IMG/VR virus record: IMGVR_UViG_2690316115_000004
From: a virus
Taxonomy: Duplodnaviria > Heunggongvirae > Uroviricota > Caudoviricetes
Strand: one strand, 5' to 3'
Length of the DNA stretch: 4,509 nucleotides
In this document: positions 586-4,128 of the stretch, piece after piece
How positions within the stretch are numbered: the first letter of the stretch is position 1
Layout: the number at the start of each line of letters is the position of its first letter
Notes under the pieces: model-generated
Told to the model about the DNA's origin: nothing
Databases searched by the model: none
Seen by the model: only the letters and a program-made list of their open reading frames with translations
Position numbers and translations under genes: made by a program

Positions 586-1641
586 GTGCGGGTATTACTT
601 CGACCTGTTCCGGTACCGGAACTTGGGTTGGTGGTCCTTAAACCAGGCCGTGAATCCATGCAGGTATTCCATAACCCTCGAGTGCTTGTGGAGCCGGAAC
701 CGAAAAGCATGCGCGGTCTGCCGTCCGGCATCGTCCCTGCCGTTCGCCAGCCGCTGGCGGAGGATAAATCATTACTGCCGTTTTTCAGCAATGAGCGTGT
801 GATTCGTGCTGTTGGTGGCGCTGGTGCACTGTCTGACTGGCTGTTGCGTCATGTCAAATCCTGCCAGTGGCCTCATGGTGACTATCATCACAGTGAAACC
901 GTTATTCACCGTTATGGTACCGGCGCAATGGTGTTGTGCTGGCACTGCGACAACCAGCTGCGTGACCAGACATCCGAATCACTCGAGCAACTTGCTCATC
1001 AAAACCTGTCAGCATGGATGATTGACGTCATCGGTCACGCAATAAGCGGTACGCAGGAGCGTGAATTATCTCTGGCTGAATTATCCTGGTGGGCGGTCCG
1101 CAATCAGGTGGCGGACGCGCTACCGGAAGCGGTATTACGTCGTTCGCTGGGGTTGCGTGCGGAAAAAATCCGCTCAATGTACCGTGAAAGCGACATCGTA
1201 CCGGGAGAGCAGACCGCCACCATCATACTGAAGCAGCGCACAAAAAATCTTGCGCCGCTGCCTCACGCCCACCAGCAAAACCCGCCACAGGAAAAGACGG
1301 TGGTCAGCATTGCCGTTGATCCGGAGTCACCGGCTCAGTATCTCCAGCGCCAGAAACCACAACGGGAAGAGATGCCTGTATACACGCGCTGGGTAAAAAC
1401 GCAGAAATGCATGACGTGCGGTAATCAGGCAGATGATCCGCATCACATCATTGGTCATGGACTGGGAGGGATGGGAACAAAGGCTGATGATTTGTTTGTT
1501 ATTCCGCTGTGCCGTAAATGTCATAACGAACTGCACGCTGGGGTAAAAGATTTTGAAGAAAAACACGGCAGCCAGCTGTTGTTGCTGATTCGTTTTTTAA
1601 TGCACGCGAGAAATTCGGGTGTCCTGAAGTGGAAAGCATGA
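586..1641 (+). CDS. DUF968-like prophage protein (YdfU-like) with two Cys/His HNH-like clusters
   Basis: 351-aa ORF. C-terminal CMTCGNQADDPHHIIGHGLGG...CRKCHNELH is an HNH-type CxxC...H...CxxCH motif; an earlier C..HGDYHH...CWHCDNQL cluster resembles a second copy. GTG start at 586 with GGAGG at 577-581; ATG 658 is an alternative start. Position directly upstream of rusA matches lambdoid prophages. Confidence 0.7.
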   Translation: MRVLLRPVPVPELGLVVLKPGRESMQVFHNPRVLVEPEPKSMRGLPSGIVPAVRQPLAEDKSLLPFFSNERVIRAVGGAGALSDWLLRHVKSCQWPHGDYHHSETVIHRYGTGAMVLCWHCDNQLRDQTSESLEQLAHQNLSAWMIDVIGHAISGTQERELSLAELSWWAVRNQVADALPEAVLRRSLGLRAEKIRSMYRESDIVPGEQTATIILKQRTKNLAPLPHAHQQNPPQEKTVVSIAVDPESPAQYLQRQKPQREEMPVYTRWVKTQKCMTCGNQADDPHHIIGHGLGGMGTKADDLFVIPLCRKCHNELHAGVKDFEEKHGSQLLLLIRFLMHARNSGVLKWKA

Positions 1642-2007
1642 ATGACTGAACGGATAGAATTTGTTTTGCCTTACCCGCCGACGGTGAATACCTACTGGCG
1701 ACGTCATGGCAATACGTATTTCATCTCGGAAGCCGGAAAGCGTTATCGCCGTGATGTGGCGCTAATTGTTCGCCAGCAGCGGCTGAAATTAAACCTGTCC
1801 GGAAGGCTGGTGATAAAGATTATTGCAGAGCCACCGGATAAGCGCCGTCGTGACCTGGACAATATCCTGAAAGCACCACTGGATGTGCTGACGCATGCCG
1901 GACTTCTCATAGACGACGAGCAGTTTGATGAAATCAATATTGTGCGCGGTCAGCTCGTTCCTGGTGGGCGGCTGGGGATAAAAATCACAGAACTGGAGTG
2001 CGCATGA
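1642..2007 (+). CDS. rusA: Crossover-junction endodeoxyribonuclease RusA (Holliday junction resolvase)
   Basis: 121-aa ORF MTERIEFVLPYPPTVNTYWRRHG...DKRRRDLDNILKAPLDVL...DDEQF...GGRLGIKITE. The size and the RRRDLDN acidic motif match RusA as I remember it. ATG 1642 immediately follows the upstream TGA (1639-1641). Confidence 0.85.
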   Translation: MTERIEFVLPYPPTVNTYWRRHGNTYFISEAGKRYRRDVALIVRQQRLKLNLSGRLVIKIIAEPPDKRRRDLDNILKAPLDVLTHAGLLIDDEQFDEINIVRGQLVPGGRLGIKITELECA

Positions 2008-2693
2008 ATAACCACTATTTACAGTTTGTGCGTGAGCAGCTCATTATCGCCACCGCTGATTTGAGTGGGGCAACAAAAGGTCAGCTTGAAGCCTGGCAGG
2101 AGAATGCCATGTTCGATACAGGGCGTTACAGGCGAAAAAAAATCCGGTACCGCGATGAAGTGACTGGAAAAATGATAACGCGGGATAATCCACCAATCCC
2201 GGGAAAGCAATCGCTGGCGAAGGTGACGTCAATTCCTCTGGTCAGTCCGGTTGAGTTTTCGACATCATCGTGGCGGCGGGCTGTTCTGTCTCTTGAAGAA
2301 CATCATAAAGCCTGGTTGTTGTGGTGTTACAGCGGGAGTATTTGTTGGGAATATCAGATCGCGATAACACAGTGGGCGTGGAATGAATTTAATACTCAAT
2401 CCGGTACCAGAAAAATTGCTGGGAAAACGCAGGAACGCCTGAAAAAATTAATCTGGCTGGCGGCGCAGGCAGTAAAAGCAGAACTTTTTGGTGGGGAAGG
2501 TTATGAATATCAGGAGCTGGCATTACTGGCGGGAGTGACAACTAAAAACTGGTCCAAAACATTTACTCGTCACTGGGTTGCAATGAAACACATTTTTCAC
2601 CGACTGGATAGTGAGGCTTTATTATTTGTAATGAGAACACGTTCAAAACAAAAGGCGGCATTTTCAAAGCAAAGTGTTGCAAAAGTAGATTGA
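2004..2693 (+). CDS. Putative late-gene antiterminator (Q-like), assigned mainly by position
   Basis: ORF ending TGA 2691-2693. ATG 2004 overlaps the rusA stop (ATGA) with GGAG at 1995-1998; the track starts it at GTG 1998. It sits between rusA and the promoter/tRNA/terminator module, where lambdoid phages encode Q. I cannot confirm Q-family membership from sequence alone. Confidence 0.5.
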   Translation: MNNHYLQFVREQLIIATADLSGATKGQLEAWQENAMFDTGRYRRKKIRYRDEVTGKMITRDNPPIPGKQSLAKVTSIPLVSPVEFSTSSWRRAVLSLEEHHKAWLLWCYSGSICWEYQIAITQWAWNEFNTQSGTRKIAGKTQERLKKLIWLAAQAVKAELFGGEGYEYQELALLAGVTTKNWSKTFTRHWVAMKHIFHRLDSEALLFVMRTRSKQKAAFSKQSVAKVD

Positions 2694-2756
2694 AAGGCAT
2701 ATGTTTCATGCAAATCTGATATTTTGCCGATTTTGTACGTGATGGCAAAAGCAAAC

Positions 2757-2784
2757 AAAACCCGCCCACAAGCGGGTTTTGTTG
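2757..2784 (+). terminator. Intrinsic terminator-like hairpin downstream of the Q-like gene, flanked by A-tract and T-tract (possibly bidirectional)
   Basis: AAAACCCGC (2757-2765), loop CCACAA, GCGGGTTTT (2772-2780), then GTTGTG. A 5-bp GC stem extended by A:U pairs with a U-rich 3' tail. Confidence 0.55.
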
Positions 2785-2787
2785 TGC

Positions 2788-2836
2788 CACTTATCTCGGA
2801 TAGACATGGTGAATGCGCTGGTGGAGGAGATAAGGG
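2788..2836. repeat. Inverted repeat (CACTTATCTC ... GAGATAAGGG) separated by 29 nt, just upstream of the promoter -35
   Basis: 2790-2797 CTTATCTC is the exact reverse complement of 2827-2834 GAGATAAG; the match extends to 9 of 10 over 2788-2797 versus 2827-2836. Function unknown; could be an operator or RNA structure. Confidence 0.4.
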
Positions 2837-2850
2837 TGATTTTTGTATGC

Positions 2851-2879
2851 TTGCAACATTGATTTCGTAACGTTATTAT
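2851..2879 (+). promoter_or_regulatory. Near-consensus sigma70 promoter (TTGCAA, 17-bp spacer, TATTAT) driving the tRNA cluster; candidate late promoter PR'
   Basis: -35 TTGCAA at 2851-2856, 17-bp spacer, -10 TATTAT at 2874-2879, with a T-rich stretch upstream. Predicted start around 2886, 2-3 nt before the first tRNA. Assignment as PR' is inference from position downstream of the Q-like gene. Confidence 0.55.
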
Positions 2880-2888
2880 CCTGCGCCC

Positions 2889-2964
2889 GGCCCTTTAGCT
2901 CAGTGGTGAGAGCGAGCGACTCATAATCGCCAGGTCGCTGGTTCAAATCCAGCAAGGGCCACCA
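2889..2964 (+). tRNA. ileZ: tRNA-Ile2 (anticodon CAU, lysidine type; formally also readable as Met), ileZ-like
   Basis: Manual cloverleaf: acceptor GGCCCTT/AAGGGCC, D-arm GCTC-AGTGGTGA-GAGC, anticodon loop CTCATAA (CAU), T-arm GCTGG-TTCAAAT-CCAGC, discriminator A and encoded CCA. 76 nt, closely resembling E. coli ileX as I recall it. Confidence 0.85.
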
Positions 2965-2965
2965 A

Positions 2966-3041
2966 CCGCCACTAGCCATCAGGAAAGAGCGTCAACCCTT
3001 TAAGTTGAGTGTGCGAGGTTCGAGTCCCCGGTGGTGGTCCA
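2966..3041 (+). tRNA. tRNA-like element in the argN slot, probably degenerate or a pseudo-tRNA (apparent anticodon UUU with C at position 33 and a weak D-stem)
   Basis: Exactly 76 nt between the flanking tRNAs. Acceptor CCGCCAC/GTGGTGG (one G-U), perfect anticodon stem TCAAC/GTTGA with loop CCTTTAA, T-arm CGAGG-TTCGAGT-CCCCG (one mismatch) and terminal TCCA. The D-stem has two mismatches and position 14 is not A. Confidence 0.4.
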
Positions 3042-3054
3042 TTATCGGTATTCT

Positions 3055-3128
3055 GCGTTGTTAGCTCAGCAGGACAGAGCAATTGCCTTCTAAGCAATCG
3101 GTCACTGGTTCGACTCCAGTACAACGCG
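3055..3128 (+). tRNA. argO: tRNA-Arg (anticodon UCU, reads AGA/AGG), argO-like; CCA not encoded
   Basis: Manual cloverleaf: acceptor GCGTTGT/ACAACGC, D-arm GCTC-AGCAGGACA-GAGC, anticodon stem ATTGC/GCAAT with loop CTTCTAA (UCU), T-arm ACTGG-TTCGACT-CCAGT, discriminator G followed by CTA rather than CCA. Confidence 0.85.
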
Positions 3129-3144
3129 CTACACTTATTTTCCC

Positions 3145-3168
3145 GGCTCGCTTTTGCGGGCCTTTTTT
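3145..3168 (+). terminator. Rho-independent terminator after the tRNA cluster (candidate tR')
   Basis: GGCTCGC (3145-3151), loop TTTT, GCGGGCC (3156-3162), a 7-bp stem with one U-G, followed by TTTTTT (3163-3168). Confidence 0.7.
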
Positions 3169-3211
3169 GTATCTGCGCCACGCCCGGCGCATACCAACCA
3201 CAGAGCCTTTC

Positions 3212-3221
3212 GGGGGGGGGG
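3212..3221. repeat. G10 homopolymer tract in the intergenic leader upstream of the TerB-like gene
   Basis: Direct read: C then ten consecutive G at 3212-3221. Long G runs are uncommon in enterobacterial DNA and are slippage-prone. Confidence 0.9.
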
Positions 3222-3303: not shown

Positions 3304-3736
3304 ATGTTTGGTATTTTGGGTAAAAAAAGCCCGCAGAGCGGCAACGGAAATTAAAAAGTTTGAAAAACGCGATCTGGCACAGGTGGTGATTAACGCCGCC
3401 TACCTGGTGGCCTGTGCAGATGGTGAATGTGAGGCTTCCTAGAAAGCGAAGATCGAACAGGTACTGCGTAATCAGCCTGCGCTGTACGCGTTTACGTCAG
3501 AAATTAATGCGATTAGCGCAACCATTATCGGTCAGCTGGATACGAACTTTAAAACTGGTCGTCGTGCGGCGTTACGTGAGATCGAGGATGTGAAACACGA
3601 TACGCGTGAAGCGGAAGATGTGCTGGATGTGGCGGTGGCCATTGCGGAGGCAGACGGCGAAATTGAGCCGGAAGAGCGCAAGGTGCTGGAAGAGATTGCC
3701 GGTGTTCTGGGTCTTCGTCTGGAGAATTACCTGTGA
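3304..3736 (+). pseudogene. TerB-like (tellurite-resistance TerB superfamily) gene, apparently disrupted by a +1 frameshift in an A7 run (3322-3328) and an in-frame TAG (3440-3442)
   Basis: AAGGA (3291-3295) sits 8 nt upstream of ATG 3304; this frame gives MFGILGKKSPQSGNGN then TAA at 3352-3354. The next frame from 3329 reads ARRAATEIKKFEKRDLAQVVINAAYLVACADGECEAS-TAG-KAKIEQVLRNQPALYAFTSEINAISATIIGQLDTNFKTGRRAALREIEDVKHDTREAEDVLDVAVAIAEADGEIEPEERKVLEEIAGVLGLRLENYL, ending TGA 3734-3736. The ADGE...E and AEADGEIEPEE segments look like the paired TerB motifs. Deleting one A restores a continuous frame from the ATG. Confidence 0.55.
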
Positions 3737-3900
3737 CGGTAAAACTGCGCCTGACTGTGGCTGCACTCCTGCTGTTTCTGGTGGTGATGGTGGATTTCAC
3801 CAGCAGAATCATGTCGGTGCTGGCGGATGGGGTGCTGGTCTGCGGCATTGTGGTATTGCTGTGGCCGGTGATAAAAAGAAACAGCCTGCATAATGCTTGA
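3733..3900 (+). CDS. Small hydrophobic protein (about 55 aa, two predicted transmembrane helices), function unknown
   Basis: GTG 3733 overlaps the TerB-like TGA (GTGA) with GGAGA at 3721-3725. Translation VTVKLRLTVAALLLFLVVMVDFTSRIMSVLADGVLVCGIVVLLWPVIKRNSLHNA, stop TGA 3898-3900. Internal ATGs at 3787 and 3811 are alternative starts. Below the 60-aa cutoff of the ORF track. Confidence 0.4.
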   Translation: MTVKLRLTVAALLLFLVVMVDFTSRIMSVLADGVLVCGIVVLLWPVIKRNSLHNA

Positions 3901-4101
3901 TTTTTTTGTTTGCTGTTTATTAAAAACACTTCTGCATGGTGAATCCCCCTGTGCGGTGGGGCAATCAGCAAGAAGGAATATGGGGTAATCGCGGATTCAG
4001 GTGCTGATACTGAATTCACCGGGAGGCACCCGGCACCATGCTTTGCCACAAAAGTGTTATTTCTGTTTTTCTCAAACTATCATCGTTATCCCTTTATTTT
4101 C

Positions 4102-4128
4102 GGCTGCGCATGGCGCGGCCTTTTTTTT
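4102..4128 (+). terminator. Rho-independent terminator upstream of the nanS-p-like gene
   Basis: GGCTGCGC (4102-4109), loop ATG, GCGCGGCC (4113-4120), an 8-bp stem with one U-G, followed by eight T (4121-4128). Confidence 0.75.

Follow-up and report, generated by a model that had tools for sequence, protein, structure and literature searches.

A tRNA-cassette promoter probably separate from a predicted Q82-type late promoter in a lambdoid prophage of Escherichia coli

By the ‘window’ I mean here the whole stretch of DNA that was analyzed, 4,509 nucleotides (4.5 kb) in length and corresponding to the late-regulation region of a lambdoid prophage in E. coli. Prophages described as ‘PPompW’ are 99.8% identical to the window, with a full-length match as found in the O55:H7 strain DEC5E. 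The genes and other features of the window are collected in Table 1. Reading rightward, a DUF968 gene and rusA are followed by a Q antiterminator gene of the phage 82 family, then by a cluster of tRNA genes, and then by a decayed TerB gene, a DUF3927 gene, a match to the small RNA STnc100, and the start of nanS-p, with lysis genes found 3' of nanS-p in the full prophage. The middle tRNA of the cluster is degenerate, i.e., it has neither a match to tRNA in Rfam nor an annotation in RefSeq over 2966-3041, though it is alignable with argN(tcg) as found in phage 2851 and in the Sakai prophage Sp5. An Rfam search likewise returned no match at 2788-2890, which is the interval leading into the tRNAs.

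Table 1. Features of the window, in order of position, with predicted elements described as such.
Feature	Position	Strand	Basis or remarks
DUF968 gene	586-1641		
rusA	1642-2007		
Q antiterminator gene, phage 82 family	1998-2693	+	Pfam PF06323, E = 1e-90
Predicted PR' -35, TTGCAA	2677-2682	+	Inside 3' end of Q
Predicted PR' -10, TATGTT	2700-2705	+	Just past Q stop; 17-nt spacer; position-weight rank 4 in window
Predicted PR' start, A	2712	+	7 nt after -10
Predicted sigma-dependent pause module	2717-2736	+	TG-a-TATTTT 2717-2725, GCC 2726-2728, AT-rich GATTTTGT 2729-2736; pause near +25
tR', intrinsic terminator of predicted short PR' transcript	2754-2786	+	12-bp perfect stem; hairpin 2754-2783 plus T-rich tail
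Inverted repeat, CTTATCTC 2790-2797 / GAGATAAG 2827-2834	2790-2834	.	8 bp perfect, 29-nt loop
tRNA-cassette promoter, -35 hexamer TTGCAA	2851-2856	+	Also cassette left boundary
tRNA-cassette promoter, -10 hexamer TATTAT	2874-2879	+	17-nt spacer from -35
Predicted tRNA-precursor start	2885-2887	+	2-4 nt leader; placed from -10 position
tRNA-Ile2, anticodon CAT, ileZ type	2889-2964	+	ARAGORN; Rfam 72.5 bits; RefSeq tRNA-Ile
Degenerate tRNA, argN homologue	2966-3041	+	ARAGORN Lys(ttt); aligns to argN(tcg), phage 2851 and Sp5
tRNA-Arg, anticodon TCT, argO type	3055-3129	+	ARAGORN, Rfam, RefSeq
Intrinsic terminator closing tRNA cassette	3145-3168	+	
Decayed TerB gene	about 3304-3735		
DUF3927 gene	3733-3900		
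STnc100 small RNA match	3905-4077		
Intrinsic terminator	4102-4120		
nanS-p start	from 4215		

The product of the Q gene is 76% identical, in terms of amino acids, to Q of phage 82 and 73% identical to Q of phage 434. When compared with solved structures its only match was to 1xov (E = 5.6e-4), a phage lysin, and that match was disregarded.

According to the initial annotation of this DNA, the stretch from the stop of Q to the first hairpin downstream lacks a convincing promoter. This is incorrect. A candidate can be recognized if the end of Q is itself included, as the -35 of this candidate (2677-2682) lies within the end of the gene while its -10 (2700-2705) lies just past the stop. The candidate was compared across 20 loci of the phage 82 Q family, consisting of nine phages plus eleven bacterial loci that were found via protein, with these 20 loci coming from Escherichia, Shigella, Citrobacter, Klebsiella, Raoultella, Buttiauxella, and an unclassified enterobacterium, as well as from phages of Enterobacter, Salmonella, and Klebsiella. 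All 20 display TTGCA(A/G) at a constant position with respect to the stop of Q, though one of them with small indels, followed by a 17-nt spacer which holds the Q stop codon and, then, by a TATATT-like hexamer. Beginning 11 nt after that -10 hexamer (10 nt in one locus) there is TGnTAYnnT, as seen in 19 of the 20 loci, with AGnTAT found instead in the other. The triplet which follows the pause element is GCC or CGC, or instead GTA or GTC in two loci, with an AT-rich stretch coming after. This non-coding conservation reaches ~30 nt beyond the stop of Q, and is still seen where phages have a Q of no more than ~60% identity. Stated as a rule, the late promoters of the Q82 family consist of TTGCAA at the Q stop, 17 nt, TATATT, 11 nt, and TGnTATnnT.

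Phage 82 itself supplies a second means of placing these elements. Its Q gene ends ...TTGCAAAACTGGATTAA, with TTGCAA as a -35 at the equivalent place. GenBank X92588 (phage 82) ends at the Q stop codon, and the matching of the window to phage 82 pR' rests on that promoter's published verbal description in combination with phage 434 and other relatives. As described by Bird et al. (2016), phage 82 pR' possesses a -10-like element with an extended -10, recognized at the point of a 21-nt transcript, along with GCC at +15-17, an AT-rich stretch at +18-25, and pausing at +25/26 (PMC5001585). If the GCC of the window is set at +15-17, then +1 is A2712 and the -10-like element spans +9 to +14. The same A2712 is arrived at based on distance from the -10 hexamer, and the two, independent rulers therefore agree. 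It had been proposed that a mapped start elsewhere, for example between 2694 and 2756, would count against placing the late promoter next to the tRNAs, and A2712, which is a position predicted by comparison rather than a mapped one, falls within that interval. With a cognate Q upstream, the geometry of promoter and pause element, and a terminator downstream, 2677-2736 appears to be a Q82-type PR', found ~170 bases upstream of the promoter that had been flagged, with its start, pausing, and Q dependence all being predictions from sequence. In relatives that are instead lambda-type (Evi, L023), it is the lambda PR' core, GGTAAATT...AACGATGGG, which adjoins Q, followed by tR' and then by the tRNA promoter.

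Transcription from 2712 that ended at tR' would produce an RNA of ~75 nt, which, as folded from 2712 to 2790, is predicted to form two hairpins (-29.6 kcal/mol, z = -4.4). This RNA would be, by analogy, the counterpart of the 6S RNA of phage lambda or of StxS. A hairpin plus T-run is found ~50-110 nt past the Q stop in most of the Q82-family loci, as judged by eye, and for phage 434 a terminator is annotated at the place equivalent to tR'. The efficiency of termination at tR' nevertheless is uncertain because its T-run is interrupted (TTTTGTTGTG). As a separate observation, sub-threshold Rfam matches to isrK and OrzO-P at 2710-2783 (19-27 bits versus gathering thresholds of 50-60) coincide with the predicted RNA, though these were not used as evidence.

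The promoter that had been flagged, TTGCAA-17-TATTAT, is indeed present at 2851-2879. It matches consensus at 9 of 12 positions, with eight other sites tying it in a simple scan, and it ranks first over both strands of the window given a position-weight score, at 11.7 bits, that is derived from textbook hexamer frequencies. Composition-matched random sequences of the length of the window, however, contain ~1.1 sites scoring as high. The bare hexamer match consequently proves nothing and is not significant on its own. What makes 2851-2879 credible as a promoter is not that match but instead its conservation and its positioning before a tRNA. Transcription also had been suggested to begin just before the tRNA, and this is as expected: TATTAT ends 9 nt before the 5' end of tRNA-Ile2 (G2889), which puts the predicted start at 2885-2887 and leaves a leader of 2-4 nt. 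The terminator at 3145-3168, beyond the tRNAs, was confirmed as well.

Conservation of this promoter was considered using IMG/VR contigs possessing an exact match to a 36-nt portion of the tRNA-Ile2 body, in combination with phage records, which together supplied 92 distinct 200-nt upstream sequences. TAT(T/C)AT precedes tRNA-Ile2 in every one of the 92, at a distance of 9 nt in 85 of them, 10 nt in six, and 8 nt in one. TTG of the -35 is similarly retained in all 92, with spacing of 17 nt in 89 and of 16 nt in three. In terms of information content, TTG and all but one of the six positions of the -10 stand at ~1.8-2.0 bits over these same sequences, versus an average of ~1.2 bits within the spacer and 0.2-1.2 bits upstream of the -35. 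There are 15 variants of the spacer and 22 variants of the stretch between the -10 and the tRNA. Upstream of the cassette -35 at least seven unrelated contexts begin. These include a remnant of a methylase gene (Sp5 type), a 65-nt spacer (the window and phage Evi), another sequence (phage 2851), and lambda-type tR' T-runs which directly abut the -35.

The other boundary is similarly distinct. Anchoring on argO for the sake of comparing cassette terminators along with what lies downstream, the terminator stem is constant, the loop is TTTT, TTCG, TTTG, or TACG, and there are at least five downstream contexts, with divergence occurring within ~10 nt of the terminator T-run. In Stx2 phages (2851, 1717, Nil2, and Sakai-type) similarity to the window spans 2850 to ~3179, setting in at the -35 and ending shortly beyond the terminator. 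Given boundaries which coincide with a -35 and with a terminator, and unrelated contexts beyond them, ~2850-3179 therefore behaves as an autonomous promoter-tRNA-terminator cassette, one in which the promoter hexamers stand out above their surroundings. The promoter, furthermore, does not co-vary with Q family. The promoter of 2851-2879, along with its tRNA cassette, is instead found behind all three of the unrelated families of Q as these are defined in PMC9388147, i.e., PF06323 (the window), PF06530 (Sakai Sp5 and phage 2851), and PF03589 (phage Evi).

In the case of the lambda-type phage Evi, similarity to the window sets in not at the -35 but further upstream, inside of the tR' hairpin (2759), from which it continues through the tRNA cassette. 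It may be imagined from this perspective that tR' belongs to the downstream module, making for a portable terminator-promoter-tRNAs-terminator unit that would serve any Q and PR', and that in this sub-lineage the 65-nt spacer, with its inverted repeat and its ORF of 18-23 codons, might harbor a small element, regulatory or coding, which overlaps the tRNA promoter. This larger unit is an improbable elaboration of the cassette as delimited above.

The copies of the cassette are homologous to one another, so their conservation is in part a matter of shared descent rather than of selection, and the spacer, too, is fairly conserved. It is conceivable for that reason, and as the hexamer match by itself is no better than expected by chance in 4.5 kb, that the hexamers are an inactive relic, such as the promoter of a captured bacterial gene, with the tRNAs supplied solely by the processing of lytic read-through from PR', particularly as Q-modified polymerase coming from PR' must cross the cassette anyway. 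Such inactivity is unlikely. TTG, TAT-AT, and both spacings have been kept even as spacer, -10-to-tRNA stretch, and upstream sequence all have diverged; the boundary of the cassette is its -35 in each of the seven or more contexts; and tR' is found between PR' and the tRNAs in every one of them. In addition, Sy et al. (2020), who mapped primary 5' ends in Sakai by dRNA-seq, found under lysogenic conditions a primary start in the Stx2a prophage Sp5 which appears to drive the tRNAs, as reported without coordinates in the text of PMC7547250. In Sp5 the interval from tR' to ileZ2 is ~160 nt in length, and the top-scoring site within it is TTGCAG-17-TATTAT, 9 nt before ileZ2, though a second site, TTGAGC-17-CAGAAT, scores almost equally. 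The link between that published start, as so described, and the homologous cassette promoter consequently is strong but not exact. Rather than being a relic, 2851-2879 very probably is a functional, ordinary sigma-70 promoter, that of a mobile tRNA cassette which is found in many E. coli prophages. A short transcript consisting of the tRNA precursor and ending at 3145-3168, as initially suggested, is in this way supported, whereas neither the identification of 2851-2879 with PR'/qut nor an action of Q on transcripts initiated there is.

Between tR' and the cassette promoter lies the interval 2787-2850, which might be thought to modulate that promoter, whether as an operator, as an RNA hairpin (the repeat), or by means of a small ORF. 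The repeat was first described as one of 10 bp, 2788-2797 / 2827-2836, and it is present to the extent that 9 of those 10 positions are paired, but only 8 bp are perfect. A perfect 8-bp repeat with a loop of no more than 40 nt occurs in ~2.8% of shuffles of the 105-nt interval, making it mildly unusual locally, and the left arm with its flank is nearly invariant. The small ORF (2806-2862, 18 codons, MVNALVEEIRVIFVCLQH) overlaps the right arm of the repeat and has its stop in the promoter spacer. In relatives a 15-nt insertion leaves this ORF in frame, with several of the substitutions synonymous or conservative. On the other hand, among 12 sequence variants the repeat is a perfect 8 bp in five and mismatched at one to three positions in the other seven, with none of the 12 displaying compensatory changes and with nearly all changes falling in the right arm. 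Variable sites of the ORF are distributed 3:5:6 over codon positions 1:2:3, which is no clear coding signal; the ORF lacks a convincing ribosome-binding site; and an exact look-up of its peptide in a protein collection found it to be absent. The segment 2787-2848, moreover, is missing from the many cassettes in which tR' abuts the -35 of what is the same promoter. Modulation of the tRNA promoter by this interval is therefore very unlikely, and the inverted repeat probably is fortuitous, i.e., without function, as judged from its sequence variation. Its proposed role as a regulatory or Q-associated site does not hold up, with pairing not maintained and with the segment absent where tR' abuts the tRNA promoter.

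Almost certainly mistaken is the original reading of the locus, by which 2851-2879 would be PR', the repeat a site for Q or for a regulator, and Q would act on the tRNA precursor to carry polymerase past 3145-3168, for although this promoter ranks first among the sigma-70 matches of the window, is downstream of Q, and has a good terminator following its tRNAs, the same promoter is found behind all three unrelated Q families, in every relative it is separated from Q by a conserved promoter of Q82 type along with a pause element and a terminator, and the repeat is without covariation and often absent. A Q-specific binding site would not be shareable by three such families, and therefore 2851-2879 is not PR'/qut. 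Nor is the promoter where a PR' would be expected, as the stop of Q is 158 nt away and the 2754-2786 terminator intervenes, with what in effect is a tRNA serving as its initially transcribed region. Within +1 to +30, of which tRNA-Ile2 occupies the portion from +4, there is no TATAAT-like hexamer with both A2 and T6, i.e., no -10-like pause element. In phage 2851 and in Sp5, furthermore, the cassette promoter is >150 nt beyond the terminator of the phage's own short late-promoter transcript, with the late-promoter start and the 3' end of the short transcript both mapped for Sp5 (PMC7547250).

The reading favored here, and one that is likely correct, is of two promoters with two jobs, that is, a Q-responsive PR' at the end of Q and a Q-independent sigma-70 promoter, 2851-2879, belonging to the cassette. 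This reading draws on the sequence anatomy, the conservation, the module boundaries, and the family of Q as these are observed, from which predictions are made as to the start sites, the pausing, the dependence on Q, and a constitutive activity in the prophage of the window. In the lysogen, sigma-70 polymerase initiating at 2712 would pause near +25, at TGaTATTTT-GCC (2717-2728), and without Q the PR' transcript would then stop at tR', releasing an RNA of ~75 nt. Upon induction, Q would load on the paused PR' complex, and the Q-modified polymerase would pass through tR', the tRNA cassette together with its terminator, and the 4102-4120 terminator, so as to reach nanS-p and the lysis genes. Polymerase initiating at ~2886, independently of Q, would give rise instead to a tRNA precursor of ~280 nt, ending at 3168, to be processed to tRNA-Ile2 and tRNA-Arg(UCU). 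The cassette as a whole, i.e., promoter, tRNA-Ile2, decayed argN, tRNA-Arg(UCU), and terminator, would in this manner supply rare-codon tRNAs to the lysogen.

Correct placement of PR', pause element, and tR' matters for predicting which prophage genes are silent in the lysogen and which are Q-induced. The genes in question are those for the tRNAs, the cargo, nanS-p, and lysis, and in relatives Shiga toxin as well. As tRNAs for AUA-Ile and AGA-Arg are carried by a cassette which has its own promoter and which is insulated by a terminator, they probably are available in the lysogen rather than only following induction.

Several known systems bear comparison. Prophage Sp5 of O157:H7 Sakai, with ileZ-argN-argO upstream of stx2AB, carries a homologous cassette, identity over the tRNAs being ~94% for Stx2 phages. 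In Sp5 it is TTGCAG-17-TATTAT which is found 9 nt before ileZ, and the terminator is the same as in the window. Upstream the two differ, with Sp5 possessing a Q of the Q933W/Q21 family, a 258-nt StxS transcript, and a methylase-gene remnant, versus a Q of the Q82 family, a predicted transcript of ~75 nt, and a 65-nt spacer in the window. They differ too in cargo, which is stx2AB in Sp5 but a decayed TerB gene plus DUF3927 in the window, and in the middle tRNA, which is intact in Sp5 but degenerate in the window.

What resembles phage 82 pR' is not the flagged promoter but instead 2677-2736, given the same Q family (76%), the same placement of the -35, the same pause layout, and a terminator. 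The -10-like hexamer of the window is TATTTT, whereas for phage 82 all that is stated is a closer match to the TATAAT consensus than in lambda (PMC5001585).

In terms of its relatives among bacterial genes, the cassette may be compared with ileX of E. coli K-12, which encodes a related tRNA-Ile2. There, TATAAT is found 10 nt before the mature 5' end, resulting in a leader of a few nt, and a terminator follows directly after. Unlike the cassette, ileX is a single chromosomal gene, and what lies upstream of it cannot be aligned with the promoter of the cassette.

The term ‘moron’, as based on comparative work with phages HK97 and HK022, describes autonomous promoter-gene-terminator insertions into lambdoid late operons. 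Morons are like the cassette in having a promoter to the left and a terminator to the right, in recurring in unrelated contexts, and in being found between Q/tR' and the lysis genes. They are like it as well in that their expression in the prophage does not depend on the late operon, as is predicted for the window. The cargo of a moron, however, is a protein gene while that of the cassette is tRNA genes, and the likeness is one of organization rather than of sequence family.

Both elements of the window are of known kinds, that is, the tRNA promoter of Sp5 has been mentioned in a single sentence, and 82 pR' is classic. What is added here is the cassette-level picture along with a late-promoter rule that holds family-wide for Q82, which leave current understanding unchanged and which confirm and extend the known organization of these prophages.

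Sequence similarity between the window, from a Q82-type prophage, and the equivalent locus of phage Evi (1500-2061), which carries a lambda-type Q gene, begins only within the hairpin of tR', the intrinsic terminator predicted to end the short transcript from the late promoter PR', and continues from position 2759 onward. A start of similarity inside this hairpin would thus place the recombination joint after the pause region but before the terminator, and tR' may travel with the downstream tRNA module instead of with Q. At another Q82-family locus, in Enterobacteriaceae MGYG-HGUT-00110, there is also a tRNA gene, of unrelated sequence, directly 3' of tR', approximately 130-150 nt past the Q stop. 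This suggests that tRNA genes recurrently land in the position just after tR'.

Features accompanying the predicted late promoter and the tRNA cassette, with window coordinates
Feature	Position	Strand	Remarks
CII-box-like site	2669-2682	minus	reverse complement TTGCAACACTTTGC fits consensus TTGCN6TTGC
18-codon ORF	2806-2862	+	reads MVNALVEEIRVIFVCLQH
Degenerate tRNA, middle of cassette	2966-3041	+	ARAGORN: Lys(ttt)
Run of 10 G	3212-3221	+	between cassette terminator and TerB gene
TerB-family cargo gene, pseudogene	3304-3735	+	frameshift and in-frame stop
STnc100 small RNA family (RF02076)	3905-4077	+	Rfam, 100.8 bits versus gathering score of 47

Within the cassette, the middle tRNA is a homologue of the argN(tcg) of Stx phages, with an additional 1-nt deletion in its D-arm relative to relatives; the Rfam tRNA model does not match it, nor is it annotated in RefSeq. 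The small ORF preceding the tRNAs ends within the spacer of the tRNA promoter. In relatives it possesses an in-frame insertion of 15 nt, giving 23 codons, and several of the other changes are synonymous or conservative. A codon-position tally (3:5:6) provides no clear coding signal for this ORF.

Past the cassette, the G-run is longer in phage Evi (11 versus 10), and it is directly past this run that ISEc20 is inserted in the PPompW phage records, similarity to the window stopping at 3218. Phage Evi has the TerB-family gene as an intact CDS of 432 nt; the copy in the window is frameshifted near 3320, at a run of A, and carries an in-frame TAG at 3440-3442. The STnc100 match is followed by a terminator (4102-4120) and then, close downstream, by nanS-p.

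With regard to known systems, ileY of E. coli K-12 (NC_000913 2785500-2786200) appears to be a phage cassette copy that has decayed. Upstream it has TTATTGCG...GTTATT, a feature shared with the lambda-type copies of the cassette, and downstream an argN-like remnant (…ATCAGGAAGAG…CGATGGCGGTC…). In the record of phage 434, the counterpart of the minus-strand site carries the annotation of a CII binding site and of the -35 of paQ. TTGCAA is palindromic, so the putative antisense paQ -35 in the window coincides with the -35 of PR'. The second TTGC of the putative CII box is found in E. coli phages but is absent from Klebsiella and Enterobacter relatives.
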